A stretch of DNA of 64,000 nucleotides from an uncultured Acidobacteriota bacterium. Its GTDB lineage: Bacteria; Acidobacteriota; Vicinamibacteria; Vicinamibacterales; 2-12-FULL-66-21. The DNA is taken from assembly GCA_963804795.1 (NCBI GenBank), contig CAWDRS010000011.1:281228-345227 (forward strand), given 5' to 3'. The notes beneath the pieces are model-generated. The model did not search any database. It saw nothing but the letters and a program-made list of their open reading frames with translations, and was not told the DNA's origin. The stretch's first letter is position 1. Every line of letters begins with the position of its first letter. Made by a program: the position numbers and the translations under genes. Positions 3,396 to 37,508 of this stretch are shown piece after piece.

Positions 3396-3472
3396 TCCGT
3401 GAGCTGTTCTCTGCCGAGAGTTCACATTCGACAATGGAACGTCGAACGGCGCGTCGCGGAAAGGAGAACCAC

Positions 3473-17577: not shown

Positions 17578-18801
17578 TCAGCGCTCCGCGCTGGAACCCG
17601 CCTTCGCAATATCCACGGCGTACGTGTGCGTGTCCCCGTGCATGTTGGACCGGAACACGATCCGCCTTGCGTCAGGCGTGAAGGTGAGGTTCGGCTCGAG
17701 CCGATAATTGTGCTTCGACAGATCGACGAGGCGCTCGACGGACAGCTTTCCATTGGACGGGCGGAACAGATAGATCCACTGGCCGTTCCCGGGCGCCGCC
17801 ACGCTGTTCGGGCCTCCGCCATCCCCGGCAAACATCGTCCCATCCGGTGATTGATTGAAGTGCACCGACCAGTGCTCCCGATCGACCGAATAACGGGTCG
17901 TCTTGCCGGTCGCGATCTCGACGCCCGCCAGCCAGAAGACCTTGCTCTTCGGGGTCTGCAGGTCGTACCAGATGGTCTTTCCGTCAGCGCTGAAGAACTC
18001 GTGACCCGCGATCTCCATCTCCATCGTCCGCGCGTGCATCAGCTGACGATGAGAGCCGTCGGTGCGGATCGTCCAGATGCGATCGACTTTGTGCCACGGG
18101 CCCTCATGGCAATACATGATGACCGCCGGATCCGTCGGTGACATCTGCACGTGGTTCAACCAGTCGGTGGATCGATAGATCGTCGTGAGCTCGCCGGTTT
18201 TGATGTTCAGCGTGTAGAGGGCCATCGGCCGGCGTGCCAGCCACCGCGCTTCGAGGCTGGCCTCCTGAGCCTCCGGGATGAGCAGCGGGTTCCCGGCCGC
18301 CGACGCCGGCGAGGCGGGCGGGGCCGGGGACGCGGCTGGCTGTCCGCCGTCCTCGACGTAGCTCCCGGCGAGGAGTGCCTCGTCGGCGCTCAGACCGAAT
18401 CCCGATCCGGTGCGGAGCCGTGGGTCGGTCTTGATCGCGCGCACCGCCCGCGTGTCGAGATCGGCTGCGTAGGCGGTGTCGCCGACGACGTAGTAGGCCT
18501 GCCGGGTCTTCCTTCCGACGACGAGCTTGGCTCCGCGCCCTGAGGCGAGCGGCGTGATCGCTCGAGTCTGCAGGTCGATCGTGGCCAGGCCGCTCGACGT
18601 CGTCACGACGATCTTGTCGCCCTTCGCCGTATACGGATTCTGGTGGAAGTACAGGCTCGCGGTACCGGGCTCGTCCGACAGCCGGACGACGCGATGTCCG
18701 GTTGCTGGTTCGACCCATTCGCGTGGAGGGTCGTCTGCTCGGATGAGCACGGCGAAGGCGGCGGAGATCAGTACCCCGGCCGCGAGTGAGTGGTGTTTCA
18801 T
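17578..18801 (-). CDS. Oligogalacturonate-lyase-family / TolB-like beta-propeller protein, secreted
   Basis: 407 aa with a signal peptide. REWVEPATGHRVVRLSDEPGTASLYFHQNPYTAKGDKIVV and the C-terminal FTPDARRIVFRSNMHGDTHTYAVDI resemble proteins annotated as the oligogalacturonate lyase family. This is from memory, not a search. Confidence 0.6.
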   Translation of the reverse strand: MKHHSLAAGVLISAAFAVLIRADDPPREWVEPATGHRVVRLSDEPGTASLYFHQNPYTAKGDKIVVTTSSGLATIDLQTRAITPLASGRGAKLVVGRKTRQAYYVVGDTAYAADLDTRAVRAIKTDPRLRTGSGFGLSADEALLAGSYVEDGGQPAASPAPPASPASAAGNPLLIPEAQEASLEARWLARRPMALYTLNIKTGELTTIYRSTDWLNHVQMSPTDPAVIMYCHEGPWHKVDRIWTIRTDGSHRQLMHARTMEMEIAGHEFFSADGKTIWYDLQTPKSKVFWLAGVEIATGKTTRYSVDREHWSVHFNQSPDGTMFAGDGGGPNSVAAPGNGQWIYLFRPSNGKLSVERLVDLSKHNYRLEPNLTFTPDARRIVFRSNMHGDTHTYAVDIAKAGSSAER

Positions 18802-18805
18802 CGTC

Positions 18806-19076
18806 GACCTCCGTTTGGCGACGGAGGGTGACGGAGGCAGCGGAGACGCTCACAAACGGAGAAACGGGGTCAACGGAGACGAAACGGAGAAGAGGAATCC
18901 AGGGCGCACACAGGCGCTGCTCGCGCGCCCGCCGCAGACGGGCACCCTGCCGCGCTACGCGCGGCGCGAGCAGGCCCCCAGTCCTTCGGCCATTTGAGCC
19001 TTTTCTCCGTTCGTCCTCCGTTAATTCCGTTCCTCCGTTTGTGAACTCCTGTACCTCCGTACCCTCCGTCAGAGAG
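18806..19076. mobile_element. MITE-like element family D, copy D1 (about 70-bp inverted arms made of ACGGAG words)
   Basis: The left arm GACGGAGGGTGACGGAGGCAGCGGAGACGCTCACAAACGGAGAAACGGGGTCAACGGAGACGAAACGGAG pairs with the right arm ..CTCCGTTCGTCCTCCGTTAATTCCGTTCCTCCGTTTGTGAACTCCTGTACCTCCGTACCCTCCGTC. It has no coding capacity. A second copy is at 36186. Confidence 0.75.
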
Positions 19077-19088
19077 GGCACTCCCATC

Positions 19089-22000
19089 TCAGAAGAGCAA
19101 CTTCAGCGTGACCTGCACCCTCCTCGCGTAGTTCCGCTGATTGGAGGCGCTGATCGTGCCGAACGCCACCTGGGTCGGTGTCGTGTTCGGGCCCGGAAAC
19201 TGCGGATGGTTCAACGCGTTGATCGCTTCGAGCCGGAACTGCAGCTGCCTGGCGCCCGCGAGCGAGGCATTCTTGATCACGGACAGGTCAACGTTGTTGA
19301 GATTATCGGTCCGCACCGAGTCGAGCCGCAACGGGAACGTCCGGACGTTCGAGCCGAGCTCCTGGCCGGACGTCCTGTTGAAGCCGGCGTCGACATTGAA
19401 CCAGCGCGCCAGGGTCTGGTCACTCCCCGAGAGTCCGATGTTGTCGATGTCGCCGGTGAAGATGAGGTTCCCGAAGCCGATCGGGAACCCACTCTGATAC
19501 GTGTAGATGCCCTGGAACTGCCAGCCGCCGACAATCGCGTCGACGCCGGCCGGCAGATTGGCCCCGAACCGCCGCCCGCGGCCGACGGGCACTTCCCAGA
19601 TGCCGCTGACGGTGAGGCGGTGCGGCACGTCCTGACTGGAGATGCCTTTCCAGGGGCTCGGGTCGGCGGCGTTCAGGAAGTCGATGGCCTCCGTGAAACT
19701 TGAATACGTGTAGTTCCCGCTGAGCGTGTACCCCGCGGAAAACCGCCGCTGGAGGCCGACCTGCAACGCGTGATACCACGACGTCCCTTCGTTGGTCGTC
19801 GTGTTGACGGTGTCGAACTGCGGATACGGGCGGAGCAGCCGTTCCCGGGCGATCGTCTGCGCGCGAAACACGGCGCCCGCCGTCGCCGGCATCAATCCAA
19901 AGAACGGGTTCGGCACGGTCGCGCTCAGATAGTCGATCGTCGCCTGATCGCGGACCGGGCTCGTGCTCAAGTACTGCTGCGGTGTCGCGTTGATGTTCCT
20001 CGATGTCTGGATGTCGGTGCCGTGATTGCCGACATACGACGCCTCCGCCACCCATCGTCCGGGCAACTCACGCTGCAGGCCCACCTGCCACCGCTGCATC
20101 CGGGGCGATTTCGGATTCGGGTCGAAGAAGGTAATGCTCTGCCCGAGGAACGTCTGAATCCCCAGCGCGGCGCCGACCGGCTCCTGGATGCCCGACAGGA
20201 ACGGATTCGACAGCGTCTCGATGAAGTGCAGGCCGTTGTCGAGCGAGGGCGTCAGGTTGGTCGTGGAGCTGAAACCGCTGGTGACGACATCACCCCGCCG
20301 CTGCCCCAGGAACCCGTAGAAGACACCGTATCCTCCGCGGACGACGGTCTTCTCGTTCACTTTATAGGTGGCGCCGAGGCGCGGCATGAAGTTGTTCTTG
20401 GGCGTCTCGTAGAGACCGTGCGGCTGGCCGTCGACGCCGGCGAACGTCACACCGCCCCTGACCTGGAATTGATTGAGGGGCACGCCCGTGGCCGCAGGGT
20501 TCAGCGCCGCACGCGCCGCCGCCTCCATCGGCTGTACGGCACCCGCATCGAACCCGCGAATGCTGTGATTGTCCGCCTCGGCGAGCGGCGTCTCGAGCTC
20601 GTAGCGGACGCCGAGATTCAGCGTCAGCCGCGATCCAAGCCTCCAGTCGTCCTGCACGTACAAGCCGTAGGTCGAAGACGTCTCGTTGTAGCTCGCCGCG
20701 CGCACGACGCTCCCCGAGCTTGGAAGACCGAGCAGGAACGAGGCGAACGACTGGCCGAGCGAGCCTGGTGCGACCGTCGAGTTGTCGAGCGGACCCCGCG
20801 TCCACGTCGCGTCGAAGTTGAACTGCCCGGTCTGATTGTTGGCGAAGAACTCGGAGGTCTCGCGATATCGGCGGAACTCGAGGCCCGTCCTCACGGAATG
20901 GCGTCCGAGCGATTTGTTCAGCGTGGCCAGGAACGAATGGCTCTCGTTCGGCCGGAACTCGCCGCCGAATCCCGTTCCCTGGTAGTTGGCTGTATTGCCG
21001 TTGAGGAAATCGAACCTTGGAAACCGCCGGATGTCATCGGGGATCGCTGCGTTGTACGACGCCGGAAACCCGAGGGTCGTCAGGTCGAAGCCGTGGTTGG
21101 CCGGATTCGTGTCCGTGCCGCGAACGAACCAGTTGTACCGTACCGGAGGTTCAACACGGTCGTGTTGTTGAACACGAGGACATGGTCGAACGCCGCCTGT
21201 CGGGAGATGAACTGAAACCACTCGCCCGTCGCGAGGTTGTTGAAGTAGTTGTTGTAGTTGCTGTTCCGGTCGTACCAGCTGTAGCGGCCGTACAGCCGCT
21301 GCCGATCGCTCACGTTGTGATCGATCCGGATCGTGTTCGTCGCGTATTTGATCGTTTCGGGTAGCGACGGGTTCTGGAAGTTGCTGGTCCCGTCCGTATT
21401 GCCGGCCGTCAGAGGATGCGCGATGTACTCGAGCGCCGCCCGGGCGACCGGGTTGATCAGGCTCTGCGGAATGATGTTTCCAGGAAACGGATCCTGCTGG
21501 AAGCGGCCGTTGCCTATCGACCGGCGGGTGAACGGATTGTAGATCTGGTATTGAGGCCCGAGCGCGAGCAGGTCGGAGAAGTCGCCGTTGCGCATCTTCT
21601 CGGTCGGCACCGTGGGAGTGCCGTTGTTTCGCGGGCGGGCCTCGTGGATCCCTTCGAATCCGTACATGAAGAACGTCTTCCGCCGGCCGTCGTAGCCCGG
21701 AAGGAGGACGGGACCGCCCGCCGTGCCGCCGTAGCGGTTGTAGGTGAAGTCGGCGAGCGGGATGTGGTTGGCGTTGGCGAAGTAGTCGTTGGCGAAGAGC
21801 TTCGACGGGGTCTTGTTGTAGTAGGCAGTCCCATGGAACGCGTTGGTTCCGGCCTTGATGCTGAGGTTCGTCACACCGCCTTCCGTGTTGCCGAAGGCGG
21901 CATCGAACGTGGCCGTCTGGACCTTGAACTCCTGCACGATGTCGGGTGGCGGCACGTAGGACGCGATCACCTCGCCGGCATTGGCTGTCGCGGTGCTCGG

Positions 22001-22622
22001 CACGCCGTCGATCGTCAGATCGCTGCGGTTGCCGCGCGTACCGTCCATCGCGTATCCGACGATGTGGGTCGGCTCGAACGGCCGATCGAGCCGGGGATCG
22101 CCGGTCGCCGACACGCCGCCGGCGAGGCCGATGAGTGCATAGGGGTCACCGTGGGGCGTCGGCAGCTCCGATACGCGTCTCGAGTCCACGACGTTGCCGA
22201 GCGACGACGTGGTCGTCTCGAGAAGCGCCGTCGCGGCGGTGACGGTCACTTCCTCGACAGCACCGCCTACTTCGAGGTCGACCTCGAGCTGGACCCGATC
22301 GGCCACCCGAACTTGAATCCCCTGTCGTGAGGTACTTCTTGAACCCCGCCAGTTCCACCGTGACCGCATACGTGCCGGGGATCAGATAGGGCGCCTCGAA
22401 CAACCCGCCGTCGTTGGTCACGGCGGATACCGTGGTGCCCATGGCCAGGTTCGTGATCGTCACGGTGGCGCCGCCGATGACGCCCCGGCTGGCATCGCGC
22501 ACGGTCCCGCCAATCGTCCCCCGCGCGTCCTGCGCGTGCACTGCGCCGGCAACGAGAATACTCGCCACGCACCCAAGCGCCAGGGCTCGGCACCTCCCGA
22601 ACAGACGTCGACTGATGCACAT
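19089..22622 (-). pseudogene. TonB-dependent receptor with CarboxypepD_reg N-terminal domain, split over three frames
   Basis: ORFs 22146..22622, 21080..22369 and 19089..21221 are consecutive parts of one receptor: a signal peptide plus GTIGGTVRDASRGVIGGATVTITN, then the plug, then a barrel ending ..RRVQVTLKLLF. The shifts are at GGTAC 22331-22335 (+1) and at GTACCGTACCGG 21135-21146 (net +2). Confidence 0.85.
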
Positions 22623-22772
22623 GCTCTCGGCCTCCTCCTCCAGAGACGCCGATGCGACGCGGCGCCTCTCACCAAGCCTTCCAAGGCCGCGACGTGGTCT
22701 TACCAGTCAACCGGTCTGACCGTTTGCGGCACGCTGGGGATCCAAGTGCATGTCGGCGGGTATGTCAATGAT

Positions 22773-22805
22773 TTGTTAACAATTGATACGCTTTGCGCAA
22801 TGCAA
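22773..22805. promoter_or_regulatory. AT-rich patch with two perfect palindromes upstream of the TonB receptor gene (possible operator/promoter)
   Basis: TTGTTAACAA (22773-22782) and TTGCGCAA (22793-22800) lie in the only AT-rich stretch of the 22623-22939 spacer. No consensus was matched. Confidence 0.25.
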
Positions 22806-22939
22806 AACGCTCGTGACGGCCTCTTCTCAGAGGCTGCTGGATATACCACTTGGTTTTCGCGCGATGGAACGTACTACCCAGTTCGGCATCCGGACGAGCG
22901 ATCCCGCCTGGGTTTCGCGCGGCGCGCCAGGACGTCCGG

Positions 22940-24964
<2,025 letters not shown>

Positions 24965-25057
24965 GCGGCGTAGTGTAACTGCCTCACCTGTCTATCGGAA
25001 ACGGTACAATTGCCTACGCCTCACGACTGATCTCGGTCGCGAGTCTGGAGAGATTGA

Positions 25058-27114
25058 ATGAAAAAGCTGCTGCTGCTCGGCCTGGCTGCGAGCCTGACGA
25101 TGTCGTGCTCGCGGGAAGCTGCGCCGCCCGCGCGTGCCGCGACGCCGGCACCCAAACCGCTCACCGCAGGCGTGGACCCGTCGGGGTTCGACAAGTCGAT
25201 CAGGCCTCAGGACGACCTCTACAAGTTCGTCAACAGTGCGTGGCTCGCCAAGACCGAAATCCCGCCCGACCGCGGTGCGTACGGAGGCTTCTACGAAGCC
25301 ATCGACCGCACGCAGGAGCGCCTCCGGGAGATCGCCGAAGAGGCCTCGAAAGCGGCCAACAAGACGCCGGGATCCGACCAGCAGAAGCTCGGTGACTTCT
25401 ACGCGTCGTTCATGGACGAGGCACGCGTCAACCAGCTGGGCAAGGCGCCACTCGAGCCGGAGCTCGCGCGGATCGACGCGCTCGCGAGCAAAACAGATCT
25501 GTCCCGCCACATGGCTCGCATGCTGATGCTCAACATGACGACGCTCGTCTCCGGCGGCGTGGACGGCGACGCACAGGATCCCGGAACGTCGGTGCTCTAC
25601 CTCGCGCAGAGCGGCCTCGGCCTCCCGGATCGCGACTATTACCTGAAGGACGATCCGAAGCTGAAAGAGTACCCGGACGAAGTACCAGGCCTACGTGGCG
25701 AAGATGCTGACGCTGGCCGGACAGCCGTCCCCGGACGCCGCCGCCAAGGAGATCGTCGCCTTCGAGACGCGACTCGCGCGCGCGCATTGGACGAACGTCG
25801 AGAGCCGCGATGCCGTCAAGACCTACAACAAGGTCACGATGGCCGATCTGCCGAAGCGCTTCCCCGGCATCGATTGGACCGTGTGGGCTCGCGAGCTCGG
25901 CGTCGACAACGTCAAGGCGGTTGTCGTCGCGCAGCCCAGCTATTTCAAGGCGATGTCCGCAGCGGTCGCGGAACTGCCAGTCGATCGCTGGAAGCCGTAC
26001 ATCAAGTTCCACACCGCCAGCGATCTCGCGCCGTATCTGAACAAGGAGTTCGTCGAAGCGCGCTTCGATTTCTACGGCCGCACCCTCCAGGGCGTCAAGG
26101 AGATGCTGCCGCGGTGGAAACGTGCGGTCAACAATCTCGACACCGTGCTCGGCGAGCTGCTCGGCAAGGTGTACGTCGAGCAGCACTTCAAGCCGGATGC
26201 CAAGGCACGGATGGAACACCTGGTCGAGAACCTGCGCGCGGCCTTCCGCGAAGCGATCGACAAGTCGGACTGGATGGGGCCCGACACCAAGAAGGAAGCG
26301 CAAGCCAAGCTCGCCGCCTTCCGCCCCAAGATCGGGTACCCGAGCAAATGGCGTGACTACTCGAAAGTGGAGATTCGGCCGGATGATCTGGTCGGCAACA
26401 TGATACGCGCCTGGATGGCCGACAGCATCTACCAGCTGGGAAAGGCAGGGAAACCCGTCGATCCCGAAGATTGGGGCATGACGCCGCAGACGGTCAACGC
26501 CTACTACAACGCGGTGCGCAACGAGATCGTCTTTCCAGCCGCCATCCTCCAGCCGCCCTTCTTCGACCCCGACGCCGACGACGCGGTGAACTACGGGGGC
26601 ATCGGCGGCGTCATCGGCCACGAGATGGGGCACGGCTTCGACGACCAGGGACGCCGCTACGACGCGAAGGGACAGCTGCGCGACTGGTGGACCGCCAAGG
26701 ACGCCGACGAGTTCACGAAACGGGCGAAGGGGCTCGTCGCTCAGGTACTCAGCGATGGAAGCGTTGCCCGGCCTCAAGGTCAACGGCGAGCTGACGCTCG
26801 GCGAAAATATCGGCGACCTGACCGGCGTCACGATCTCGCATCGGGCGTACGAGCTCTCGCTCGGCGGCAAAGAGCCGCCGACGATCCAGCGGACCACGGG
26901 CCTTCAGCGGTTCTTCTACGGCTGGGTACAGGCGTGGCGAGCGAAATCCCGAGACGACGCCCTGCGCCAGCAGGTCATGAGCAACCCGCACGCGCCGGAC
27001 ATGATGCGGGGCAACGGTCCTCTTCCGAACGTCGCGGCGTTCTACAGCACGTTCGACGTGAAGGAAGGCGACAAACTGTGGCTGGCGCCGGATCGCCGGG
27101 TGAAGCTCTGGTAG
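25058..27114 (+). pseudogene. M13 (neprilysin/PepO) zinc metallopeptidase lipoprotein, split over three frames
   Basis: ORFs 25058.., 25695.. and 26755..27114 join to one M13 enzyme (lipobox LTMSC, NAYY, VIGHEMGHGFD, GENIGD). The shifts are at GAGTACCC 25667-25674 and CAGGTAC 26742-26748, each +1. Confidence 0.85.
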
Positions 27115-27126
27115 CGGCCGCGCAGG

Positions 27127-27390
27127 CTATTTTGGTCGATGGGGAGAGCGTCCGCCGAGAGGCTCGGAGGCATCGTGGAGATCTCCTACGAGATGAGCGC
27201 GGGTCTCGACCTCCGTCAGGCGGCCAGACGCGTAGGTGGATGCCTCTCTCATCAACGCGTTGGCTTGCTCGCTGGGAAGCTCGCGCAGGTCGTCCAGATG
27301 ATGGCCGCGGCCCTGAAGATACTCTTCGATGAATGCGCGTTCGAGCTGGGCGAGGGGATCCCCGACCGAATCAGGGTGTTCTGAACTCAT
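27127..27390 (-). CDS. Hypothetical small acidic protein (87 aa)
   Basis: ATG at 27390 with GGAGGTG 8 nt upstream. I recognise no family. Confidence 0.5.
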   Translation of the reverse strand: MSSEHPDSVGDPLAQLERAFIEEYLQGRGHHLDDLRELPSEQANALMREASTYASGRLTEVETRAHLVGDLHDASEPLGGRSPHRPK

Positions 27391-27465
27391 GGAATAACAC
27401 CTCCGAGCGCTGGCAGATCGATCGTAGCGCGATTCTGCCTGTCGCGCACGGATTCCCTGGATGCC

Positions 27466-29790
27466 CTACCGCGGGCCCGCCGGCAGGTGCTCCGTCAGAT
27501 AGCGCGTCAGCAGCCTGTAGAGGTGCACCGTCGTCCCGGGCCCCTCGGAGATCGAGTGCGTGCGATCCGGGTAGGTCATGAAGTCGAACGGCTTCCCAAG
27601 CTCGATCAACCGATTGACCAGCAGCTCGGTCCCTTGATAGTGCACGTTGTCGTCGCCGGATCCGTGCACGATGAGGAGGTCGCCCCTCAGCCCTTCCGCA
27701 AAATTGATCGCCGAGCCCCGCTTGTAGCCATCGACGTTCTTCGTCGGCAGCCCCATGTAGCGCTCCTGGTAGATCGTGTCGTACAGGCGCTGGTCGGGGA
27801 CCGGCGCCACGGCCATTCCCACTTTGTACAGCTCCGGGTGGCGGAAGATCAGATTCAGTGTGTTCGTCCCGCCGCCGCTCCAGCCCCAGACCGCCACTCG
27901 ATCGAGATCGACGAAGGGGTGCATGCGATTGAGCGAGCGCAACGCTTCGGCCTGCTGCGTCGAGGACAGGACGCCCACCGATCCGTACACAGCCTTGCGC
28001 CACGCGCGCCCTCGCGGCGCGGGTGTCCCCGAATTGTCGAAGCTCACGACCAGGTAGCCGAGGCTCGCGAGATATCGGTGGTACAGACCGCCGGACCCGC
28101 CCCAGTTGTCGGCGACGGTCTGCGCCGCCGGCTCGCCGTAGACGTGCACCAGCACGGGGTACTTCATCGACCGATCGAACTTCGGTGGCTTGATCAGATA
28201 CCCGTCGACCAGGATGCCACCGCCAGCATCGACTTTGAAGAACTCGACCGGCGGATCGAGGAGCGGCGCAACTTTCCGCTTCAGCGCGACGCTGTCGCCG
28301 GTAGAACGCACGACCTTGTGATCGGGCAGCGTCACGAACTGCCGGAAGCCGGGGTCATCGAAGCTGGAGAAGCCATGGAAGGCATATTTGCCGTGGGGCG
28401 AGATCTCGTACACGTTCGTACCCTTGAGCGTTGCTGGCGTGACGCGCACGGGATCAGACGAACCGTCGAGCGCTGACCTGTAAAGATACCGCTGCGTTGC
28501 GTTCTCGGGCGACGCGACGAAGTAGAGCCAGCCTCCCTTCTCGTCGACGCCGGAGATGCTCAGGGCATCCATGTTGCCGCGGGTGACCAGCGTCTCGCGA
28601 CCGTCCCGCGCGACGCGATAGACGTGCATCCAGCCGTCCTTCTCGGACAGGACCAGGAATTCGGCTCCCTGCCGAATCGGCAGCGCTTCCGGGAGGCCGC
28701 CGTAACCGATCGTGATGAACGCCTCGTCCCGATCGCGCCACATCTCGCGCACGCGGCCGGAGCGCGCGTCCGCGAGCAGGTAGGCGTCGGTGTTCTGCAG
28801 GCGATTGAGCTGCTGGATGAGCACCGTGTCGGCATCGGCCCACTGGAGGCGAGCGATGTAGTGCTCGCGCGGATCGCCCGGAATCTGCAGCCACTTCACG
28901 GCGCCGCCGCCGACGTCGACGACACCCGCTCTCACCGCCGAATTCGTGGTGCCCGCGAGCGGGTACGGCACGCTCATCGTGACGGGGAATGGCCCGGTCT
29001 TCGGGTACGGAATCGACGTCACGATCTCCCGTTCGGCGCCGAGGTAGTACTGAAGCGAAAAGTTCCCGACGCCGTGAAGATCGAACTGCCAGAACGCGAT
29101 GCGGCGTCCGTCAGGGCTCCAACGGAAGCAGTCGTGGAGATCGAGCTCCTCCTCGTTGACCCAGTCGGATCCCCCATTGACGACCAGGTCCGATCCGTCG
29201 CGCGTGATCCGCTTGATGGCACCGGTCGCGACCTCTTCCACGTGGATGTCGTTTCGGAGCACATAGGCCACCTTCGTCCCGTCAGGATCGAACGTCGCGT
29301 ACATCAGGCTGGCTTCGGGCGCCTCCCCTCCGAGCTTTCTGAGCTTGCCGGTGCCGCGATCGAAGAGCCAGTAGTCCCCGCGGGAGTCCGTTCTCCAGAC
29401 CCGGCGCGCGTTGGTGAACACGAGCACGCGCTTCTGGTCTTTCGACCAGGACAGATCGACAACCGCGAGCGGAGTTCTCGCACCAGTCGGCGTGAGCTGC
29501 GCGGCGGAAATGAGCACCTCTCGCTGCGTGCCCGTTGCGGTGTCGTACTTCACGACGTCGACGCCGCCCATTCCGGTCGTCGCGGGCTCGGTCGCCACGT
29601 AGGACTCGCCGTTGTCGAACCAGCGAGGCCGCGGCGGAAATCGGGCCGCGAACTCGCCCGATACAATGCGTCCGATCATGTCGGGCGCAGCCGTACTCTG
29701 GCTGACGGCGGGCACCTGCGCCCCCACCGTCGCCAAACACACCGTCATCGTCAAGGCGAGCGCAGCGCGGCGGAACACGTGGATCGTCAT
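27466..29790 (-). CDS. S9B dipeptidyl-peptidase IV family serine peptidase
   Basis: Internal ATG at 29790 of ORF 27466..29949(-). It has a signal peptide, a beta-propeller N-domain (DYWLFD, SDWVNEEE), the nucleophile WGWSGGG, GSGDDNVH and DRTHSI. Confidence 0.9.
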   Translation of the reverse strand: MTIHVFRRAALALTMTVCLATVGAQVPAVSQSTAAPDMIGRIVSGEFAARFPPRPRWFDNGESYVATEPATTGMGGVDVVKYDTATGTQREVLISAAQLTPTGARTPLAVVDLSWSKDQKRVLVFTNARRVWRTDSRGDYWLFDRGTGKLRKLGGEAPEASLMYATFDPDGTKVAYVLRNDIHVEEVATGAIKRITRDGSDLVVNGGSDWVNEEELDLHDCFRWSPDGRRIAFWQFDLHGVGNFSLQYYLGAEREIVTSIPYPKTGPFPVTMSVPYPLAGTTNSAVRAGVVDVGGGAVKWLQIPGDPREHYIARLQWADADTVLIQQLNRLQNTDAYLLADARSGRVREMWRDRDEAFITIGYGGLPEALPIRQGAEFLVLSEKDGWMHVYRVARDGRETLVTRGNMDALSISGVDEKGGWLYFVASPENATQRYLYRSALDGSSDPVRVTPATLKGTNVYEISPHGKYAFHGFSSFDDPGFRQFVTLPDHKVVRSTGDSVALKRKVAPLLDPPVEFFKVDAGGGILVDGYLIKPPKFDRSMKYPVLVHVYGEPAAQTVADNWGGSGGLYHRYLASLGYLVVSFDNSGTPAPRGRAWRKAVYGSVGVLSSTQQAEALRSLNRMHPFVDLDRVAVWGWSGGGTNTLNLIFRHPELYKVGMAVAPVPDQRLYDTIYQERYMGLPTKNVDGYKRGSAINFAEGLRGDLLIVHGSGDDNVHYQGTELLVNRLIELGKPFDFMTYPDRTHSISEGPGTTVHLYRLLTRYLTEHLPAGPR

Positions 29791-29883
29791 GTAAGCCATT
29801 CTCTCCGGTGCGAATCGGACAGGGCAGGGTACCGTCGGAGATGCGAGGAAAGCAATGTTGGCGGGATGAGAGCGAACGAAACG

Positions 29884-29953
29884 GTGGCTTCCACCTTCAG
29901 GTGGAAGGCGGACATCAGCCGCCTTCTTCCGCCTGAAGGCGGAAGCCACGAAG
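29884..29953 (+). repeat. Repeat family B, copy B2
   Basis: GTGGCTTCCACCTTCAGGTGGAAGG..CTTCCGCCTGAAGGCGGAAGCCAC. Confidence 0.9.
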
Positions 29954-29964
29954 CAGGAGTGCCG

Positions 29965-30282
29965 TCAACAGACGACGGCTGTGCCGCTGACCGACACCAT
30001 CAGCATGCCGTTGTTCTGCCCGAGCACTTCGTAGTCGAGATCGATGCCGACAACCGCTGACGCGCCGAGATCCTGCGCCTTCTTCTGCATCTCGGACATC
30101 GCGATCTCGCGCGCCTCGGCGAGGCCGCGCTCGTAGGTCGCCGATCGGCCACCGACGACGTCGCGGACGACGGCGAACATGTCGCGGAAGACGTTGGCGC
30201 CGATGATCGCCTCACCCGTGACGACGCCGAGATACCGGGAGACGGGCTGACCCTCCACGACCGACGTTGTAGTCATCAACAT
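29965..30282 (-). CDS. ybjQ: YbjQ/UPF0145 family protein
   Basis: [50 protein letters not shown] at 30282 with AAGGAGA upstream. Confidence 0.85.
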
Positions 30283-31468
30283 ACCGGCTGGCTCTCCTTT
30301 TGCGGGTGCCACGCTCCAGCGCACGTCCCGGCGCGACACCCATCAGAGGAATATACGAAGGAGCGTCCGGCGTGTTCGCTGCGGTCGAGCTGTCACGGGG
30401 TCCGTTCAGGTTGCGGAACATCTGATAGATCTGATTGATGAGCGCGGTATGCGTGTCCGGCGCTGTTTCCGGCAGGTTCGTGGGGGTGATGAACATGCCG
30501 GTGCGCGAGAGCGCCCAGCTCTGGATGATCACGTGCTGCGGCATGACCTCCCAGCTCCTGAAGACGCGCCCGAGCTCACGCGCGTTTCGAAGCGCGTCAG
30601 TCGCGTACAGCGCGTCGGCATCGCCGTTGTCGCCCCACACGATCACGCCGAAGGGAATCTTGTACTGAGCGGCAAGAGCCGACAGCTCGAGCATCTCGCC
30701 CGCGAACAGCTCCCGGCCGGGCGACACGTCGGGCCGGCGCGCATCGATGTGCAGGAAGTCGACCGTCAGGCCTCGCTCCCGCAGCAGCCGGAACATCTCG
30801 GCGAATTCGGCCGGCGAGAACACCGGGTACGGCTCGATGAGGCCAATCCGCACATCTGGAAATGCGCGTCGCACGGCAGGAATGTACACGGCGAGACGGT
30901 CGGCGGTCGGGACGAACGAGGGCCCACCGCACCTGCGCACCAGACCACCTGTGAACGGTTCGTCCATCGCGACATAGGTCACACGTCCGCCTGCAGCCTT
31001 GACGTTGCGCAGGGCCTCGAGCGTCCGATCGATCGATGACTGCATGCCGCTGGCGTCCGGCGTGCAGTAGCCCTCTTTGACCGCGCCGGCCTCGACGGCT
31101 ATCCGCTTGCCCCAGCGCATCAGCTTCCGGAACGCATCCGCACGGACGAACGCGGTGTAGCTGTTCGGCCCTTCACCGGGAGAGACCTGAGTCAGCAGAT
31201 GCCCTTGATAGAACTCGAACACTTCCATGATCTGGCGGGCCCGGGGCCACTCCCCAGGCGATTCGAACAACCGGAGCATGTCCACTGTGCCAGGGCCGGG
31301 AGTGAACCAGATTCGGTCGCTCGTCCAGGGCCATGTGGAGGCATCCTGCACCCCGACGAGCGCGACAGCCAGGACAGTCAGTACGACCCGCCGCGACCAG
31401 TGGCCCCTCGACAGAGTGACGGGCTTCGGCGGCGCGACCGGGCACGCGCCGTAAGACGTGCTGCGCAT
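30212..31468 (-). CDS. Hypothetical secreted protein (possible TIM-barrel glycan-active enzyme); 3' end uncertain
   Basis: 418-aa ORF with an N-terminal hydrophobic anchor. The last ~45 codons are low-complexity and overlap ybjQ by 71 nt. Confidence 0.55.
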
Positions 31469-31720
31469 GGCTCAGTTCATTGTCTCAGAACTCAACCAAC
31501 GATCACCCCGCGCTGACGCGCGGATGGCGATCACCCGGCGCTGACGCGCGGATGGCGCCCCAGAGAGCATGCGGACGCACGAGGTCACCCCAGATCCGGA
31601 AGCACCTTCGGAAAATGTCCGGGAGCCGTCCGCTCGAACGTCGAAGAAACAGAAGCAGGCAGTGAGCCTGACCTTCAACGAATTTCCAGCCCGGCTTGAT
31701 TGAGGGCTCCAGGAGTCGAG

Positions 31721-32533
31721 ATGTCCGCACCGCACGTCCTGCTCACCGGTTTGGCGATGGGTGAATCTCCGCGATGGCATGACGGCCGTCTCTGGCTCTC
31801 CGACTGGGGTGCCCAGGAGATCGTTGCCGTGGATCCCAGTGGCAGGAGCGAAGTCATCCTCCGAGTGCCGTTCCTTCTCCCGTTCTGCATCGACTGGCTG
31901 CGCGACGGACGCCTCCTTGTTGTCTCGGGCCGAGAAGGGCTGCTGCTCAGGAGAGAATCCGATGGCTCGCTGACGACCCACGCCGACCTGACGAGCCTGT
32001 CTCGCGGCGCCTGGAACGAAATCGTCGTGGACGGCCGCGGAAATGCCTACGTCAACACAGCCGACGCCATCGCCCTCGTCACTCCCGAAGGGTCCGCTCG
32101 CCAGGTTGCCGATGGCGGCGCCTTTCCGAACGGCATGGCCGTCACGCCCGACAACTCGACGCTCATCATGGCGGAGTCCCACGGCAAAACGCTGACGGCC
32201 TTCGACATCTCCGCCGACGGCAGCCTTTCACGGCGGCGCGTGTGGGCCGACCTCGGCGACGGTGTTCCCGATGGGATTTGCCTCGATGCGGAACACGCCG
32301 CATGGTACGCGGACGTTCCCAACAAGCGGTGCGTGCGCGTTCGCGAAGGCGGCGAGGTGCTGCAGACGGTCGCGCTCGACCGGGGCGGCTTTTCGTGCGC
32401 GCTCGGCGGGGTGAACAGGAGAACGTTGTACGTGGTCGCGACCGAATGGCGAGGCATGGAAAAGGTGGAGGAGGTGGCACGAGCGCGGACCGGGCAGGTA
32501 CTGTCGATCGAAGCGCCAGCGCCCGGCGTTTAG
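31721..32533 (+). CDS. SMP-30/gluconolactonase/LRE-like beta-propeller protein
   Basis: MSAPHVLLTGLAMGESPRWHDGRLWLSDWGAQEIVAVD..FPNGMAVTPDNSTLIMAES..DGICLDAE. Confidence 0.8.
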   Translation: MSAPHVLLTGLAMGESPRWHDGRLWLSDWGAQEIVAVDPSGRSEVILRVPFLLPFCIDWLRDGRLLVVSGREGLLLRRESDGSLTTHADLTSLSRGAWNEIVVDGRGNAYVNTADAIALVTPEGSARQVADGGAFPNGMAVTPDNSTLIMAESHGKTLTAFDISADGSLSRRRVWADLGDGVPDGICLDAEHAAWYADVPNKRCVRVREGGEVLQTVALDRGGFSCALGGVNRRTLYVVATEWRGMEKVEEVARARTGQVLSIEAPAPGV

Positions 32534-33504
32534 CTCTGGACGCTGACGAGTTCGAGACTGCCTCGCTCCGGTTCCCAATCGGCGATCACGGTCCCAACGG
32601 TCGTCGTGCCGAGATACCACGCAGGGATCGTCGACACCATCGGAAGGACAGTCTCGATCGGCAGCCCCGTGAACCGCACCGTGTTGGCGACCGCGCGCGG
32701 CAGAGTCAAAGACGAGCCCGCAAGATACGGAGTGCCGGGCAGCGAGACGCGGCCGTCTGCAGCCGACTCGCAGACGACGTGGCCAATGGAGTACCGGCCG
32801 GGACCGCATCCGGCGGCTGCCGTCGCATCGGTTACGAGGATCGTTCGAGCAGCGCCCTTCCCGCGCACCATCGCTTTCACCGTCGCCGCGGGCAGGTGAT
32901 GTCCGTCGACGATGAGGGAAGCGGTGACGAGGTCGTCGGAGAGGAGCGTCCAGATGACATTCGGATGCCGCGGGAGCATCTGCGCGCAGCCGTTGCCGAG
33001 GTGCGTGGCGAGGGTCGCGCCTGCGGCAATGCCGGCCTCGATCTGCTGGGGCGTCCCCCCACTGTGACCGATCGCCACTCTGACGTCCGCCTTGACCAGA
33101 TGCTCGATGAGCGCCAGCGCGCCAGGCACCTCGGGCGCCAGCGTGACCAGCACGATCCGGCCGTCTGCGGCCTCCTGCCGGCGCTCGAAGTCGGCGACGC
33201 TGGCCGACGTCACGTGCTCACGCTGATGCGCGCCGCGCGGCCCATCTTCGGGCGAGAGGTACGGCCCCTCCATGTGGATGCCGGCGATTGCGGGATCGGT
33301 GGATCGGGCGATGATTCGCGCGTTCCGCGCGAACAGTTCGAGGCCCGACGTAATCAGCGTCGGCAGACAGCGCGTGACGCCGGTGCCGCGCTGCTGGTGC
33401 AGGGCTCCCGCGAGGCGGTCGCTCGTCAGGTCCGGGGCGTTGAAGTCGATGCCCGCGAAGCCGTTCACCTGCAGGTCGAAGAGCCCAGGGAATTCGAGCC
33501 TCAT
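32530..33504 (-). CDS. nagA: N-acetylglucosamine-6-phosphate deacetylase-like amidohydrolase (short form)
   Basis: MRLEFPGLFDLQVNGFAGIDFN..GIHMEGPYLS..IGHSGGT..ATHLGNG is the NagA metal-site pattern. It lacks the ~55-aa N-terminal beta-sandwich segment of E. coli NagA. Confidence 0.75.
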   Translation of the reverse strand: MRLEFPGLFDLQVNGFAGIDFNAPDLTSDRLAGALHQQRGTGVTRCLPTLITSGLELFARNARIIARSTDPAIAGIHMEGPYLSPEDGPRGAHQREHVTSASVADFERRQEAADGRIVLVTLAPEVPGALALIEHLVKADVRVAIGHSGGTPQQIEAGIAAGATLATHLGNGCAQMLPRHPNVIWTLLSDDLVTASLIVDGHHLPAATVKAMVRGKGAARTILVTDATAAAGCGPGRYSIGHVVCESAADGRVSLPGTPYLAGSSLTLPRAVANTVRFTGLPIETVLPMVSTIPAWYLGTTTVGTVIADWEPERGSLELVSVQS

Positions 33505-33509
33505 TATTA

Positions 33510-33880
33510 AACCGGGGGGCTTCGCCCCGCCGGACCCCCCAGCGCCGTCGCTCGCGGGGCCCCGTCGCCCCGCTCCGCTCCGGCGGGCGCGCCGTCGGCG
33601 CGCCTGGTTTAGTCATTACACCGGGGGCTTCGCTCCGCCGGCCCCCCAGCGCCGGCGCTCGCGGGGCCCCGTCGCCCCGCTCCGCTCCGGCGGGCGCGCC
33701 GTCGGCGCGCCTGGTTTAGTCATTACACCGGGGGCTTCGCTCCGCCGGACCCCCCAGCGCCGGCGCTCGCGGGGCCCCGTCGCCCCGCTCCCCTCCCGCC
33801 TTCGCTAAAGCTCCGGCGGGCCGCCGTAGCCTTGGCGGAGGCTGGCCGGCGGGCGCGCCGTTGGCGCGCCTGGTTTAAGT
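33510..33880 (+). repeat. Repeat family C, three tandem ~108-bp units (the third carries a ~55-bp insertion)
   Basis: Units start near 33510, 33618 and 33726: ACCGGGGGGCTTCGCCCCGCCGGACCCCCCAGCGCCGTCGCTCGCGGGGCCCCGTCGCCCCGCTCCGCTCCGGCGGGCGCGCCGTCGGCGCGCCTGGTTTAGTCATTAC. Confidence 0.9.
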
Positions 33881-33937
33881 TAAGTTATGCGGCTCGTCGA
33901 CAACGAGACCCAATTCTCGGTGCGAGCCGCCAAGCGT

Positions 33938-34711
33938 CTAGTCGGCCTGGCGGATCTCTCCCCTGACCGAGGGCGCCAGCAGCGAGGCTGAGTCTCGATC
34001 GAGGTACAAAGTCGTGTTCTGATGCTTCTGGAGGATCGATGCCGGCGTCACCGGCGACACTTCGCCCTCCACCGACGCCTTGACGGCTCCGGCTTTTCGA
34101 GCATCCGGCACGATGCACAGGATTTCGCGCGACTTGAGGATCTGGCACACCGACATCGACACCGCCACGGGCGGGACATCCTCGACGGAACCGAACCACC
34201 CCTCACCGACCTGTTGGCGGCGGCACGCCGTGTCGAGCGTCACGAGCAGGTACGGCCGATCGGTGTCGAAGTCGGCCGGAGGATCGTTGAAGGCGAGATG
34301 TGCGTTCTCACCGATCCCAACGAACGCCACGTCCACCGGCGACCGCGCCAGCTCGGCTCCGACGCGCTCGGCGGCGGCCTCGGCGTCCCGTTCGCAATCG
34401 AGAAAGTGATAGCGGACGATGCCCGTCCTGGTGATGAGCCGCTCGAGCAGATACTTGCGAAAGCTCGCGGGGTGGTCGATCGGGAGCCCGACATATTCGT
34501 CGAGGTGGAACAGCTCCACGCGCGACCAGTCGATGCCCGGAGTCGCTGTGAGCGCGTCGAGAAAGCCGAACTGGGACGCGCCAGTCGCCGCGATCATGCG
34601 GACCGCCCCGCGGTCCGCAATCGCGTCTCGCAGTGCATGCGCCGCGTGCCGCGCAGCGGCGCGGCTCATCACGTCACGATCGATGTAGGTCCTGATCTGC
34701 ATGATCTGCAC
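33938..34711 (-). CDS. nagB: Glucosamine-6-phosphate deaminase/isomerase family protein
   Basis: [37 protein letters not shown]. The start is GTG 34711 or ATG 34702. Confidence 0.8.
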
Positions 34712-34740
34712 GTGGAGTTCACCGCACTCTCACCTGCCGC

Positions 34741-36151
34741 TCAGCGCGCCAGCCGCGGCGCCGGCCGGGAAGAGCCGACACGGCTCATCTCGGTCCCCTT
34801 CGTCGTCACGAAGTACTTCGCCAGCATGTTGGGCCGCTCCCAGGCCGGGAGCGCACTTCGATTCCTCAGGTACTCCAGGAAGTTGTTGGTGACCTGTGCG
34901 AAGTGGGCCTCGTGACCGACGCGGAAGGCGTCGGGAATGCCGACGTGGATCTCGGCCCCGCGATCCTCGACAGTCACGCCGGGATACTGCGCTTGGAGCG
35001 CCGAGATCTTCTTCTGGACGGCCGCCAGCACCTGAGGCTTCTCAGCGGCGCGAGTCGGGATCACGTAGAGCTCCGGGCGGAAACGATCGGCCTGTCCCTG
35101 GCGGATCTCGACGCGAGCCCTTGTCCCACGATAGAACGCGAAGTGGGTGTCACCGGATCCCGCCGGCGGCTCCCAGTCCCAGATCACATTCAGCTTCGTG
35201 TGGATGCCTCGCAGCGAGTACGCGACGAGCGTGTTGCAGAAGTACATCGAGGTTCTGACCTTTCACGGCCGAGCCCAGGCTGTCGGGGAAACGTGGCTCG
35301 CGTGTCACGCGCTGGAAATCCTGCTGCGAGATCGTCGTCGGCCAGCGCTGTGCCGCGAGGACCTGGATATCCTTGCGATAGTCGATGGCCGTGTCAGGAA
35401 AGAGCGTCCACTGCACGAGATCCACCAGATGCGTCCCGATGTCGTTCAGCCCTTCGCCTTGCTCGGACGTATCGAAGAACCAGGGTGGCCGGATGTTCGG
35501 AGCGCCAGAGACCACCTTCATGAGGTAGTGGACGCTCTCCATGTAGACGCCGGGATCGGCGTCCGTCCCGGGAACGATCTCCCCGAACGCCGCCGGATCG
35601 TTCACGAGCGCTCGCTGCAGTATCGAGGTAATCTCGAACCGCTCCGTCATGATGTCGTAGGCGACGACACCTCGCTTGTCCGCTTCTGCGAGCGTCGCCT
35701 CGAGCTTCGGAAGGTCGTCGGACTTGAGGATCCACGGCTTGTCGCCGAGCACGTTCAAGCCGGCGCTCACCGAGGCGGCGATCCGGTCGATCTTCACGCG
35801 GTTGCGTCCCGAGAGCATGACCACGTTGCCTGGCCGCTCCCGGAGCATGCGCTCGAAGTAGTCGGGACTGGTGTGGACGTCCAGGTCCCACGATGTCGGA
35901 TGATCACCGCGATGGTTGTACGCGGAGATGCGGTTCAGGTGCTCGATCAGGTCGGGTCCGAGCGGCGCGAAGACGTCGACGCGCGGCGCCACGCCGGGAT
36001 ACATCTCTTTCTGGACGAGGGCGGCGTGGAAGTGCCCCGGGTCGAGCGTCATCAGTCGGACCTGAGCCATCGAACGGCCGCCCTCCTGGGCGGCGAGGAG
36101 CCCGCCGCCGACGACGGCGGCCGCGACCAGAACAGGGAGCCTGGATCTCAT
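34741..36151 (-). pseudogene. Gfo/Idh/MocA-like oxidoreductase with putative-oxidoreductase C-terminal domain, +1 frameshift near 35242-35246
   Basis: ORF 35150..36151(-) ends ..[12 protein letters not shown]. The continuation [24 protein letters not shown].. lies in ORF 34741..35247(-). The junction on the coding strand is GAT-G-TAC. Confidence 0.8.
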
Positions 36152-36185
36152 TGCAGGTCGAACTATAGCAGCCCCGTGCGGGTGT

Positions 36186-36418
36186 CGGAGGGGACGGAGT
36201 TATCGGAGACGCTCACAAACGGAGCAACGGAGCCAACGGAGACGAAACGGAGGGAACTGGCTGGCTTGTGGCAGACGAAGGGCGCGACGCCGGCTGTTGG
36301 CCGGCTACGCGCGGTCGCGCCCTGCGAATGTCGCGAACCCGCTCGTTCTCTCCGTTCGTCCTCCGTTGGCTCCGTTTCTCCGTGTGAGCGTCTCGCCGAT
36401 AACTCCGTCCCCTCCGTC
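36186..36418. mobile_element. MITE-like element family D, copy D2
   Basis: The arms 36186-36254 and 36348-36416 are about 90 percent complementary over ~68 nt (CGGAGGGGACGGAGTTATCGGAGACGCTCACAAACGGAGCAACGGAGCCAACGGAGACGAAACGGAGGG). The ~95-bp centre shares CTACGCGCGG with D1. Confidence 0.8.
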
Positions 36419-36561
36419 AAACCTCATCACCTGTAGCCGGCCGCCGCCAGGAGCGCTGCGCAGTCGTAGAGGCCGCCGTTGGCCACGACCAGACGCGCCG
36501 TCCGGATGTTGGAGATCTCTTCGGCGCATCACGCTGTGGCATTCCACCGCATCTTACAACT

Positions 36562-37409: not shown

Positions 37410-37508
37410 CCCGCGCTCCAGCTCAGACCATCCAGCGATTCAGTGCAGGTGTTCTTGATTCAAGAGCTCTATACGTCAGCCCGCGATTTCCCGCGATTTC
37501 AGATCCGC

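Follow-up and report, generated by a model that had tools for sequence, protein, structure and literature searches.

The window, the whole 64,000-nt stretch of DNA that was analysed, carries two long foldback elements, D1 and D2, whose arms of ∼67 nt are each built of seven or eight (A)ACGGAG words. Both were recovered where the initial annotation had placed them (D1 at 18820-19070 and D2 at 36186-36416), and the arm pattern is observed twice in the window, compared with no matches in 100 shuffles of it. The elements and their flanking genes are listed here in window coordinates, with profile matches in contig coordinates.

17578-18801, minus strand: oligogalacturonate-lyase-like gene (Pectate_lyase22), its start 18 nt from the D1 arm
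18820-18889, unstranded: D1 left arm, eight (A)CGGAG words, GACGGAGGGTGACGGAGGCAGCGGAGACGCTCACAAACGGAGAAACGGGGTCAACGGAGACGAAACGGAG; nhmmer arm profile match at C11:300054-300116, 55.9 bits
18890-19004, unstranded: D1 centre, a AAGAGGAATC junction segment plus a short-form GC-rich multi-hairpin module
19005-19070, unstranded: D1 right arm, the word array in reverse complement; C11:300232-300295, 46.1 bits
19089-21221, minus strand: TonB-dependent receptor gene, its stop 18 nt from the D1 right arm
35150-36151, minus strand: Oxidoreduct_C-domain protein gene, with D2 34 nt upstream
36186-36252, unstranded: D2 left arm, seven CGGAG words, the top-scoring arm genome-wide at 63.8 bits (76.7 bits with model R1)
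36253-36349, unstranded: D2 centre, a GGAACTGGCTGGCTTG junction segment plus a GGGCGCGAC...GTCGCGCCC hairpin module
36350-36416, unstranded: D2 right arm, 49.7 bits with the arm profile
36562-37347, plus strand: DUF4159 protein gene, divergent from the oxidoreductase gene, with D2 145 nt upstream

D1 lies between two co-directional genes, as the TonB-dependent receptor gene stops 18 nt from its right arm, and the Oxidoreduct_C open reading frame beside D2 is probably shortened by a frameshift. The Shine-Dalgarno sequence of the Pectate_lyase22 gene, AACGGAGG, resembles one further arm word. Between D1 and D2 the arms are conserved and the centres diverge, as previously described, and neither element has coding content. 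The inverted repeats span 46 nt at 80% plus 17 nt at 82% in D1 and 106 nt at 78% across the whole of D2, with the D2 arms alone at roughly 88 to 90% by eye; the single-strand folds are −170.7 kcal/mol (z = −11.0) and −173.1 kcal/mol (z = −16.3), respectively. The module in the D1 centre (CTGCTCGCGCG...CGCGAGCAG, bearing side hairpins) has matches in 10 other D centres and at 8 loci where it stands alone, and the sequence CTACGCGCGG common to both centres is part of a small side hairpin (CCGCGC-loop-GCGCGG) in the nested module. A search of 18000-37500 against all Rfam families with permissive filters returned nothing relevant, and scans for sigma-70 promoters and intrinsic terminators found none and no consensus. 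A conserved short open reading frame or sigma-54 promoter in the GGATCCGGATGGCTAGC junction segment was also considered and rejected by eye, with neither start codons nor spacing being conserved.

D1 and D2 belong to a dispersed, multi-copy, noncoding inverted-repeat family. A profile search of the genome of the window (G000) finds 102 arms, forming 47 convergent pairs and 8 solo arms, so that the two copies of the initial annotation, and the possibility it raised that no others exist, understate the family. The pairs are small (151 to 1,002 bp, with arms of ∼67 nt as terminal inverted repeats), and every one is ordered with a plus-strand match followed by a minus-strand match, such that all read 5′-ACGGAG words ... 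centre ... CTCCGT words-3′ on either strand. All 47 copies are intergenic and in either orientation, many of them 0 to 30 nt from a stop or start codon, and the asymmetric centre shows no bias relative to the orientation of flanking genes. D1 and D2 are indeed 18 and 34 nt upstream of the secreted-enzyme genes, but this position has no special meaning, as the 47 copies occur in all gene contexts and in both orientations. A sister species of the same genus (G002) has 97 arms, and within the taxonomic family 62 of 112 genomes, from 20 of 29 genera, have arms, whereas none of 300 other Acidobacteriota genomes does; two further genomes of the genus, G001 and G003, have one arm and none, respectively.

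Target-site duplications, which the initial annotation had proposed looking for, were not found by either of two methods: an exact-repeat test was negative, and the best local direct flank repeat among 88 elements was 4.98, compared with 4.90 in shuffled pairings. One G002 copy (L069) has a GCCATGCC duplication, which is within chance for 88 elements. The search for an insertion target motif yielded merely a weak GA ahead of the first word, and CTCCG/CGGAG is in ∼three-fold excess within the 20-nt flanks.

Within an arm, the CGGAG words, of which there are seven or eight, follow one another at start-to-start distances of 9, 9, 16, 8, 9, and 11 nt. These words are conserved, but the pairing of one arm with the other is not: partner arms are 0.764 identical compared with 0.754 for unrelated arms, the partner is the nearest relative for only 4 of 94 arms, and arm-pair mismatches include 43 G-U and 46 A-C on the sense strand together with 112 transversions, with no G-U bias. 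When tested as structured RNAs or regulatory leaders, the elements show no pairing-preserving compensatory changes and no fixed orientation to a gene. Concerted evolution among the repeated words, rather than protein binding, could account for the word conservation. With arms ∼75 to 78% identical and no near-identical pairs, the copies are old and show no sign of a recent burst.

The contents of the elements turn over at sites that persist between the sister species. Among 41 elements in G002, 25 sites could be resolved, of which 15 have an element in G000 as well and 10 lack one there. The sister species therefore differ in the presence or absence of copies, in line with the initial annotation; two of the 10 sites unoccupied in G000 have 49- to 50-bp mini-palindromes built from the outer words. 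The D1 and D2 sites are both occupied in the sister species and are therefore not recent insertions, and the D2 site there has a copy with a 288-nt centre that includes an extra long hairpin. Arms at shared sites are 0.780 identical, compared with 0.777 at unrelated sites, and no outer-to-inner arm gradient of shared descent was found in a test of centre-only conversion. The centres contain nested GC-rich hairpin modules, which are also found standing alone, the best match of a centre is usually at another locus, and one G002 centre contains an IS110-family transposase gene.

The long arm pairs in G000 and G002 contain a gene of the GxxExxY family, an IS110 insertion, or nested repeats, and in neither genome do D arms form the native ends of a transposase gene. 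The suggested search for an autonomous partner was thus successful in that the same arms flank a gene, but that gene does not code for a transposase. It lies directly between D-type arms in 10 arm-rich genomes, with no second, inner repeat pair between gene and arms: once in G000 (C8:195712-196442, with two frameshifts in the gene), twice in G002 (one copy with a stop), and in eight further genomes (G010, G049, G057, G067, G068, G077, G109, and G119). No D-armed GxxExxY gene is present among ∼20 arm-poor genomes, and one arm-rich genome (G041, with at least 38 arms) lacks a GxxExxY gene. The D-armed open reading frames match TIGR04256 and PF13366, and the ∼130-residue protein has invariant E21, D72, E82, Q96, and Y100 and a nearly invariant K84 (90% or more), with the E...D...ExK...QxxxY motifs intact in full forms. 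A PDB sequence search gave no significant match, but the AlphaFold model (mean pLDDT 87) has Cas4 SSO0001 as its top PDB fold match, followed by RecB-like exonucleases, and as modeled the protein is a Cas4/RecB-like PD-(D/E)XK nuclease. Strand transfer is not an activity known for PD-(D/E)XK nucleases this small. With a nuclease as the partner gene and no target-site duplication, the label "MITE-like" of the initial annotation fits only loosely, in that the elements are gene-less forms derived from one that bears a gene; no transposase is involved.

A small open reading frame between inverted word arrays is a general design in these genomes. Twenty-four of 29 GxxExxY genes sampled in the lineage are located between inverted short-word arrays, with the words being ACGGAG, CAGGAGAT, GCAGAG, CGCGGAT, CGCCAAGG, GGGAG, and ACGAAG; the CAGGAGAT family has one gene-bearing copy (C23) and ∼50 arrays. 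All six PF05635 genes checked in G000, which code for four-helix-bundle proteins of the 23S rRNA IVS type, are also between inverted word arrays, with words other than those of D; the 23S rRNA gene of G000 itself has no IVS, the single gene found spanning 2,990 nt for 2,925 model positions. Word type clusters on the protein tree, with 16 changes compared with 20.2 when shuffled (as low in 2 of 200) and, in a second tree test, 25 compared with 29.0 (as low in 4 of 200). The D-armed proteins are not monophyletic, however, and at least three origins are forced. Genes and arms thus reassort, and the gene could have invaded D centres rather than driving the family.

We consider it probable, although by no means certain, that D1 and D2 are gene-less, nonautonomous copies of a lineage-specific foldback element whose full form carries GxxExxY. 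The full form has one small GxxExxY gene directly inside two inverted ∼67-nt arms, in each of which seven or eight (A)ACGGAG words follow a set order, and the gene-less form has two short junction segments between the arms, usually with one or more nested GC-rich hairpin modules. The word arrays may be recognised by a protein, the encoded nuclease being the most plausible candidate, which could keep or spread gene-less copies in trans; the clustering of word type on the protein tree is indirect evidence for such a role of the nuclease. The likeliest route would be a break in or beside a foldback that is repaired from another copy, resulting in the replacement of cassettes or in homing between arm pairs at dispersed sites, with new intergenic sites arising by rare illegitimate capture; cut-and-paste transposition appears less likely than break repair. 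A copy that is transcribed, as may be the case for D1 with its co-directional neighbours, would give a long stem that RNase III could cut, by analogy with the 23S rRNA IVS. The findings are indicative of selfish DNA of a little-described kind and not of a classical transposon relic.

A rather different interpretation, which we regard as unlikely but deserving of serious attention, is that GxxExxY is a passenger or invader, and that D elements are long-resident palindromes, with centres acting as hot spots for anything that targets hairpin tips, including family-A hairpin modules, CAGGAGAT elements, IS110, and the small nuclease gene, with the arms held uniform through concerted evolution among their repeated words. 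The several unrelated elements nested in D centres, including the IS110-family transposase gene of G002, are consistent with this, as are the polyphyly of the D-armed proteins, the presence of arms without the gene in G041, and the lack of any trace of common descent in arms at shared sites, which fits scrambling or conversion. It accounts poorly for the finding that nearly all sampled GxxExxY genes, whatever their word type, are directly between word arrays with no inner repeats, for the clustering of word type on the protein tree, and for the confinement of D-armed genes to arm-rich genomes. That the elements are instead structural repeats serving the host, in the style of REP/BIME or ERIC, with copy number reflecting selection rather than selfish spread, seems to us quite improbable. 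Hairpins might shield operon transcripts or partition them, or a nucleoid or regulatory protein of the host might bind the word arrays, and the intergenic location of all copies, commonly close to a stop or start codon, the position of D1 between co-directional genes, the strong conservation of the words, and the occupancy of 15 of 25 resolvable sites in both sister species could all be understood in this way. However, there is no preference for orientation or gene context, the elements are dispensable given the one arm in G001 and none in G003, selection does not act on the pairing (mismatches show no G-U bias), neither a promoter or terminator consensus nor an Rfam match is found, and the contents of shared sites are not conserved.

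It is very improbable that D elements are classical MITEs, that is, internally deleted insertion sequences with terminal inverted repeats recognised by a DDE (or Y1/RAYT) transposase, even though the terminal inverted repeats, small size, many copies, and presence/absence differences are those expected of one. There is no target-site duplication, the flank repeats scoring about as in controls, the only transposase enclosed by an arm pair in G000 or G002 is that of IS110, which itself lacks such ends, Y1_Tnp is absent from G002 in spite of its 97 arms, and known bacterial insertion sequences do not have ends like these 67-nt, eight-word arms. A RAYT/Y1 transposase as the mobiliser was rejected, as it does not co-occur with arms (PF01797 is absent in G002, G014, and G018).

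Bacterial MITEs such as Correia elements, Nezha, and RUP are short, noncoding, multi-copy, and intergenic, have terminal inverted repeats, and derive from a gene-bearing element having the same ends. D elements are similar in being short, noncoding, numerous, and intergenic, with the ends of a gene-bearing form, but they differ in lacking target-site duplications, a transposase partner, and a recent burst, and in having arms that are ∼three times longer and made of repeated words. REP/REPIN sequences are intergenic palindromes without target-site duplications and are associated with RAYT, a single-copy gene flanked by the same repeats. D elements share the dispersed intergenic palindromes, the lack of target-site duplication, and the repeat-flanked gene; however, that gene codes for a PD-(D/E)XK nuclease where RAYT is a Y1 HUH transposase, the distribution of Y1_Tnp does not follow that of the D family, and D arms are word arrays, whereas REP hairpins are 20 to 40 nt. 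Ends with repeated words acting as multiple protein-binding sites are present in Drosophila Foldback (FB) transposons and in the subterminal AAACGG repeats of maize Ac/Ds, which are eukaryotic, transposase dependent, and make target-site duplications; the long inverted ends of short repeated words are alike, but this is an analogy with no homology implied.

Xanthomonas GGGAATC heptamer arrays are also intergenic short-word arrays in convergent pairs on opposite strands, with 70 to 75 pairs per genome near the end of a neighbouring ORF, and have been read as G-quadruplex-forming simple repeats with no link made to an ORF or mobility (Rehm et al. 2015, PMC4692102); the D arm, in contrast, is ordered and nonuniform and not a pure tandem repeat. 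The closest published analogue is the 23S rRNA IVS. In Coxiella burnetii and Leptospira these can carry a small ORF in the loop of a long stem, with GACAGAT heptamers, purine-rich tandem words, beside the stem in Coxiella; ORF-less, decaying versions exist, and the IVS has long been suspected of being mobile, with the ORF serving mobility, without proof (Warrier et al. 2016, PMC4990558; Ralph and McClelland 1993, as cited therein). The two have in common a long stem of terminal inverted repeats around a loop that varies and may or may not contain a small ORF. The D copies differ in that they are intergenic, with none in rRNA helix 25 or 45, that their ORF codes for the GxxExxY nuclease rather than the four-helix-bundle S23p/PF05635 protein, and that there are ∼50 gene-less copies per genome.

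These D1 and D2 elements should be annotated in this genome as repeats and not as regulatory leaders of the adjoining enzyme genes. We propose the GxxExxY word-armed foldback cassette as a working class, which is absent from the literature searched. A broader, and tentative, proposal is that such cassettes form an unrecognised class of transposase-free prokaryotic selfish elements, in which GxxExxY would read its own arm words and break foldbacks, with repair from other copies then carrying genes and hairpin modules between dispersed arm pairs; sister cassettes would have an Avd-like four-helix-bundle protein in place of GxxExxY. This is possible, if doubtful at present, and it would explain the persistent sites with replaced contents, the conserved words without conserved pairing, and the two very large protein families of unknown function that accompany the bacterial excess of 6- to 9-nt intergenic repeats. 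GxxExxY (TIGR04256/PF13366) is itself very large, with at least 7,956 clusters at an E value of ≤1e−10 among 8,000 candidates scored, and its function was given as "Unknown" in a 2012 superfamily survey; the term is rarely used in the literature searched. Should the nuclease be shown to act on the word arrays, GxxExxY and, in parallel, the protein family of the 23S rRNA IVS would each be linked to a defined DNA architecture that has left gene-less descendants, giving both families a testable role. The thirty-year-old idea of the rRNA IVS as a mobile element could then be studied in intergenic DNA of the ordinary kind, some of the bacterial intergenic word repeats that now lack an explanation would be traced to a source, and a transposase-free means of moving DNA would be added.

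The two hairpin-forming repeats of the window, D1 and D2, have the architecture that the initial annotation gave them, with arms of ACGGAG words inverted around a center, and their parts, re-mapped by eye and with a profile, are as follows:

18820-18889, left arm of D1
18890-19004, center of D1
19005-19070, right arm of D1
36186-36252, left arm of D2
36253-36349, center of D2
36350-36416, right arm of D2

The core arm pattern has two matches in the window and none in 100 shuffles, and the single-strand folds reach -170.7 kcal/mol for D1 (z = -11.0 versus shuffles) and -173.1 kcal/mol for D2 (z = -16.3). The arm consensus is CGGAGGGGACGGAGGGAACGGAGACGCTCACAAACGGAGAAACGGAGTCAACGGAGACGAAACGGAG, often directly preceded by GA, with seven or eight (A)CGGAG words per arm at start-to-start spacings of 9, 9, 16, 8, 9, and 11 nt. 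We note that the lyase-like gene just outside D1 has a Shine-Dalgarno region, AACGGAGG, 6 nt before its ATG (minus strand, window 18802-18819), with the sequence of an arm word. The oxidoreductase gene beside D2 (window 35150-36151, 333 aa) is probably shortened by a frameshift, because its orthologue match is limited to residues 1-303 and the orthologous open frames are 477 to 616 aa.

Further copies of the D1 and D2 type, the search suggested by the initial annotation, are present throughout the genome of the window (G000; 7.14 Mb, 65.6% G+C; the window is C11:281228-345227), in which an iterated nhmmer arm profile finds 102 arms, forming 47 pairs and 8 solo arms. In all 47 pairs, which are 151 to 1,002 bp long, the plus-strand match comes first and the minus-strand match second. 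A sequence-only arm model (R1) finds 97 arms in the sister species G002, and of the remaining two genomes in the genus, one has a single arm and one has no arm. Within the taxonomic family, 62 of 112 genomes, from 20 of 29 genera, carry D arms (with at most 44 candidates scored per genome), and none was found in 300 further genomes from the rest of the phylum; the repeat family is therefore old, confined to this lineage, and patchy. By a crude GC3-based gene call, which makes gene positions approximate, all 47 copies are intergenic and many lie 0 to 30 nt from a stop or start codon, with flanking genes co-directional in 22 cases, divergent in 11, and convergent in 9. The target-site duplications expected of a MITE-like element were not found in either of two tests, nor was a clear target motif at the insertion points, although CTCCG/CGGAG shows about 3-fold enrichment in the 20-nt flanks when all D elements are taken together. 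The elements have no promoter or terminator consensus and no Rfam match.

Three long D pairs enclose a small ORF alone, and both the hairpin module and the inner repeats are absent from them:

G000 C8:195712-196442, D pair with ORF
G002 C9:275373-276241, D pair with ORF
G002 C11:3020-3780, D pair with an intact ORF of 138 aa

A gene-bearing partner with the same arms, which the initial annotation had envisaged as coding for a transposase, thus exists, and it codes for a GxxExxY nuclease instead (TIGR04256, E = 2.4e-41; PF13366, PDDEXK_3). Sampling of GxxExxY genes from 14 arm-rich genomes gave genes flanked on both sides by D-type arms in G049, G057, G067, G068, G077, G109, and G119, in addition to G000, G002, and G010, and one locus each with D-type arm matches on a single side in G048, G068, and G112; a GxxExxY gene was not found in arm-rich G041, and none of the GxxExxY loci examined from about 20 arm-poor genomes is D-armed. 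The D-armed gene of G000 (C8:195946-196345) is disrupted by two frameshifts, in each of which a CC run lacks one C; these may reflect true decay or, since the assembly may carry indel errors, may not be real.

Among 39 homologues of the protein, E21, D72, E82, Q96, and Y100 are invariant, as are G29, L30, L31, and Y35 of the GxxExxY motif, and K84 and E32 are nearly so (at least 90%); together these residues make up the RecB/Cas4 motif set. A sequence search against solved structures gives no match. The AlphaFold model (mean pLDDT 87.2, pTM 0.81) has Cas4 SSO0001 as its best structural match (E = 2.8e-3, TM 0.49), followed by RecB-like exonucleases. The function of PF13366 is given as "Unknown" in a 2012 survey of the PD-(D/E)XK superfamily, and the literature searched holds no account of GxxExxY in a word-armed design.

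The arrangement of a small ORF between inverted word arrays is a general one. At 24 of 29 loci in 25 genomes the GxxExxY gene lies between inverted short-word arrays, with arms of 18 to about 400 nt and words that vary by element (ACGGAG, CAGGAGAT, GCAGAG, CGCGGAT, CGCCAAGG, GGGAG, and ACGAAG). The CAGGAGAT/CAGAAGAT octamer family of G000 has one GxxExxY-bearing copy (C23:35691-36352) and about 50 arrays (e.g., C1:30785-30886 and C16:6712-6847), dozens of them gene-less and some nested in D elements. All six genes checked in G000 from PF05635, the four-helix-bundle "23S rRNA IVS protein" family, are likewise between inverted arrays of 7- to 8-nt words, a different word each:

C3:73447-73764, C25:120348-120650, C11:146604-146921, C8:241968-242282, C15:410385-410660, and C9:254181-254487, the six PF05635 genes
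GGCGCTC, TAGGAGC, GCTTCCA, GCAGTCG, CAGGGTGC, and GGTTCAA, their words

The Coxiella IVS has an S23p ORF, a 28-bp terminal stem, tandem GACAGAT heptamers, and excision by RNase III, and the same paper recalls an older proposal that IVSs are mobile elements (PMC4990558). For Xanthomonas, 70 to 75 convergent GGGAATC array pairs in each genome were reported by authors who connected them with no ORF (Rehm et al. 2015, PMC4692102).

Word type is clustered on the GxxExxY tree, with all three CGCGGAT proteins in one clade (support 100/99), both CGCCAAGG proteins together (98/87), and four CAGGAGAT proteins with one unlabelled (95/92). Over all labels, word type changes 16 times versus a shuffled value of 20.2 (2 of 200 shuffles are as low), and 25 times versus 29.0 on a larger tree of 51 proteins (4 of 200 are as low). 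On the larger tree the D-armed proteins fall in several well-supported small clades and do not make up a single one, and the genes and arms thus partly co-travel and partly reassort.

The initial annotation proposed a test for polymorphism among strains, and presence/absence differences are seen between the sister species, in that 41 G002 D elements placed with their flanks on G000 fall into the following classes:

15 sites, D element also present in G000
10 sites, D arms absent
5 sites, something else present
11 sites, unresolved

The 15 shared sites include those of D1 and D2. In G003 the D2 site is empty, and the loci in G001 and G010, where synteny is lost, gave no D-arm match. Two of the 10 "empty" sites (C15:95970-96019 and C24:60877-60925), both with full D elements in G002, carry 49- to 50-bp mini-palindromes in which the outer three words from either arm are fused at or near the symmetry point. 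With a third at C14:83134-83198, such mini-palindromes span 49 to 65 bp, and in form they resemble symmetric internal deletions or excision footprints. Of the five "other" sites, at least two carry a foldback that belongs to another word family. G000 foldbacks with other words (GGGAGGAC or GATCGGGT) occur opposite three G002 D loci (C10:259438-259743 at L071, C16:82074-82270 at L080, and C7:234719-234781 at L055), and one has the same outer words and hairpin module as the G002 element, so word families take one another's place while the site stays fixed.

Flanks at the 15 shared sites are 77 to 91% identical, and the arms are no closer than those of unrelated loci (0.780 versus 0.777 identity overall; 0.463 versus 0.451 at 19 variable columns), with no outer-to-inner similarity gradient; the center of a G002 copy usually has its best match at a different G000 locus. 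The sites thus persist with contents that are not inherited unchanged, either by in-place replacement of D elements or because scrambling of between-word positions far outpaces change in the flanks. Word positions in the arms are nearly invariant and between-word positions close to random, arm identity is no higher within an element than between elements (0.764 versus 0.754), and the nearest relative is the own partner in just 4 of 94 arms. Sense-strand arm mismatches, counted in elements with co-directional flanking genes, are 43 G-U, 46 A-C, and 112 transversions. The constraint or homogenizing process thus targets the words and not base pairing, a pattern that argues against a selected RNA hairpin and favors protein recognition or concerted evolution among words. 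Classical MITE, REP/RAYT, and regulatory-RNA readings of the D elements each fail a defining test.

The centers are themselves composite, and 41 of 47 in G000 are linked by similarity. Each element has a polarity, which comes from the difference between its two junction segments (AAGAGG... at one and, on the opposite side, a GGATCCGGATGGCTAGC-like segment) and bears no relation to the direction of flanking genes. Nested palindromes form a module with an outer stem of CTGCTCGCGCG/CGCGAGCAG (a second type has GGGCGCGAC/GTCGCGCCC instead), a pair of small side hairpins and, optionally, a long hairpin whose sequence varies among copies; CTACGCGCGG, reported as common to the D1 and D2 centers, is one of the side hairpins. 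The GC-rich CTGCTCGCGCG/CGCGAGCAG module of about 137 bp, found in D1 at window 18913-18983, also stands alone at 13 or more loci (C7:658066-658203, C7:799242-799376, C17:177419-177553, C10:259522-259656, and at least nine more), and is probably the "family A" annotated elsewhere in the window. Longer copies also contain CAGGAGAT/CAGAAGAT elements of the second word family. One G002 element (L022, C9:59000-64000; arms at 1598-1651 and 3419-3483) contains an IS110-family RNA-guided transposase gene (ORF 1714-2841, 375 aa, NF033542), which looks like an insertion into the palindrome and not the owner of the arms. The main rival explanation is that the GxxExxY gene is one more such invader of D centers. 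The evidence best supports a reading of D1 and D2 as gene-less members of a family of foldback cassettes that in their full form carry the GxxExxY nuclease, and this nuclease may read the words and drive the replacement or spread of D copies.
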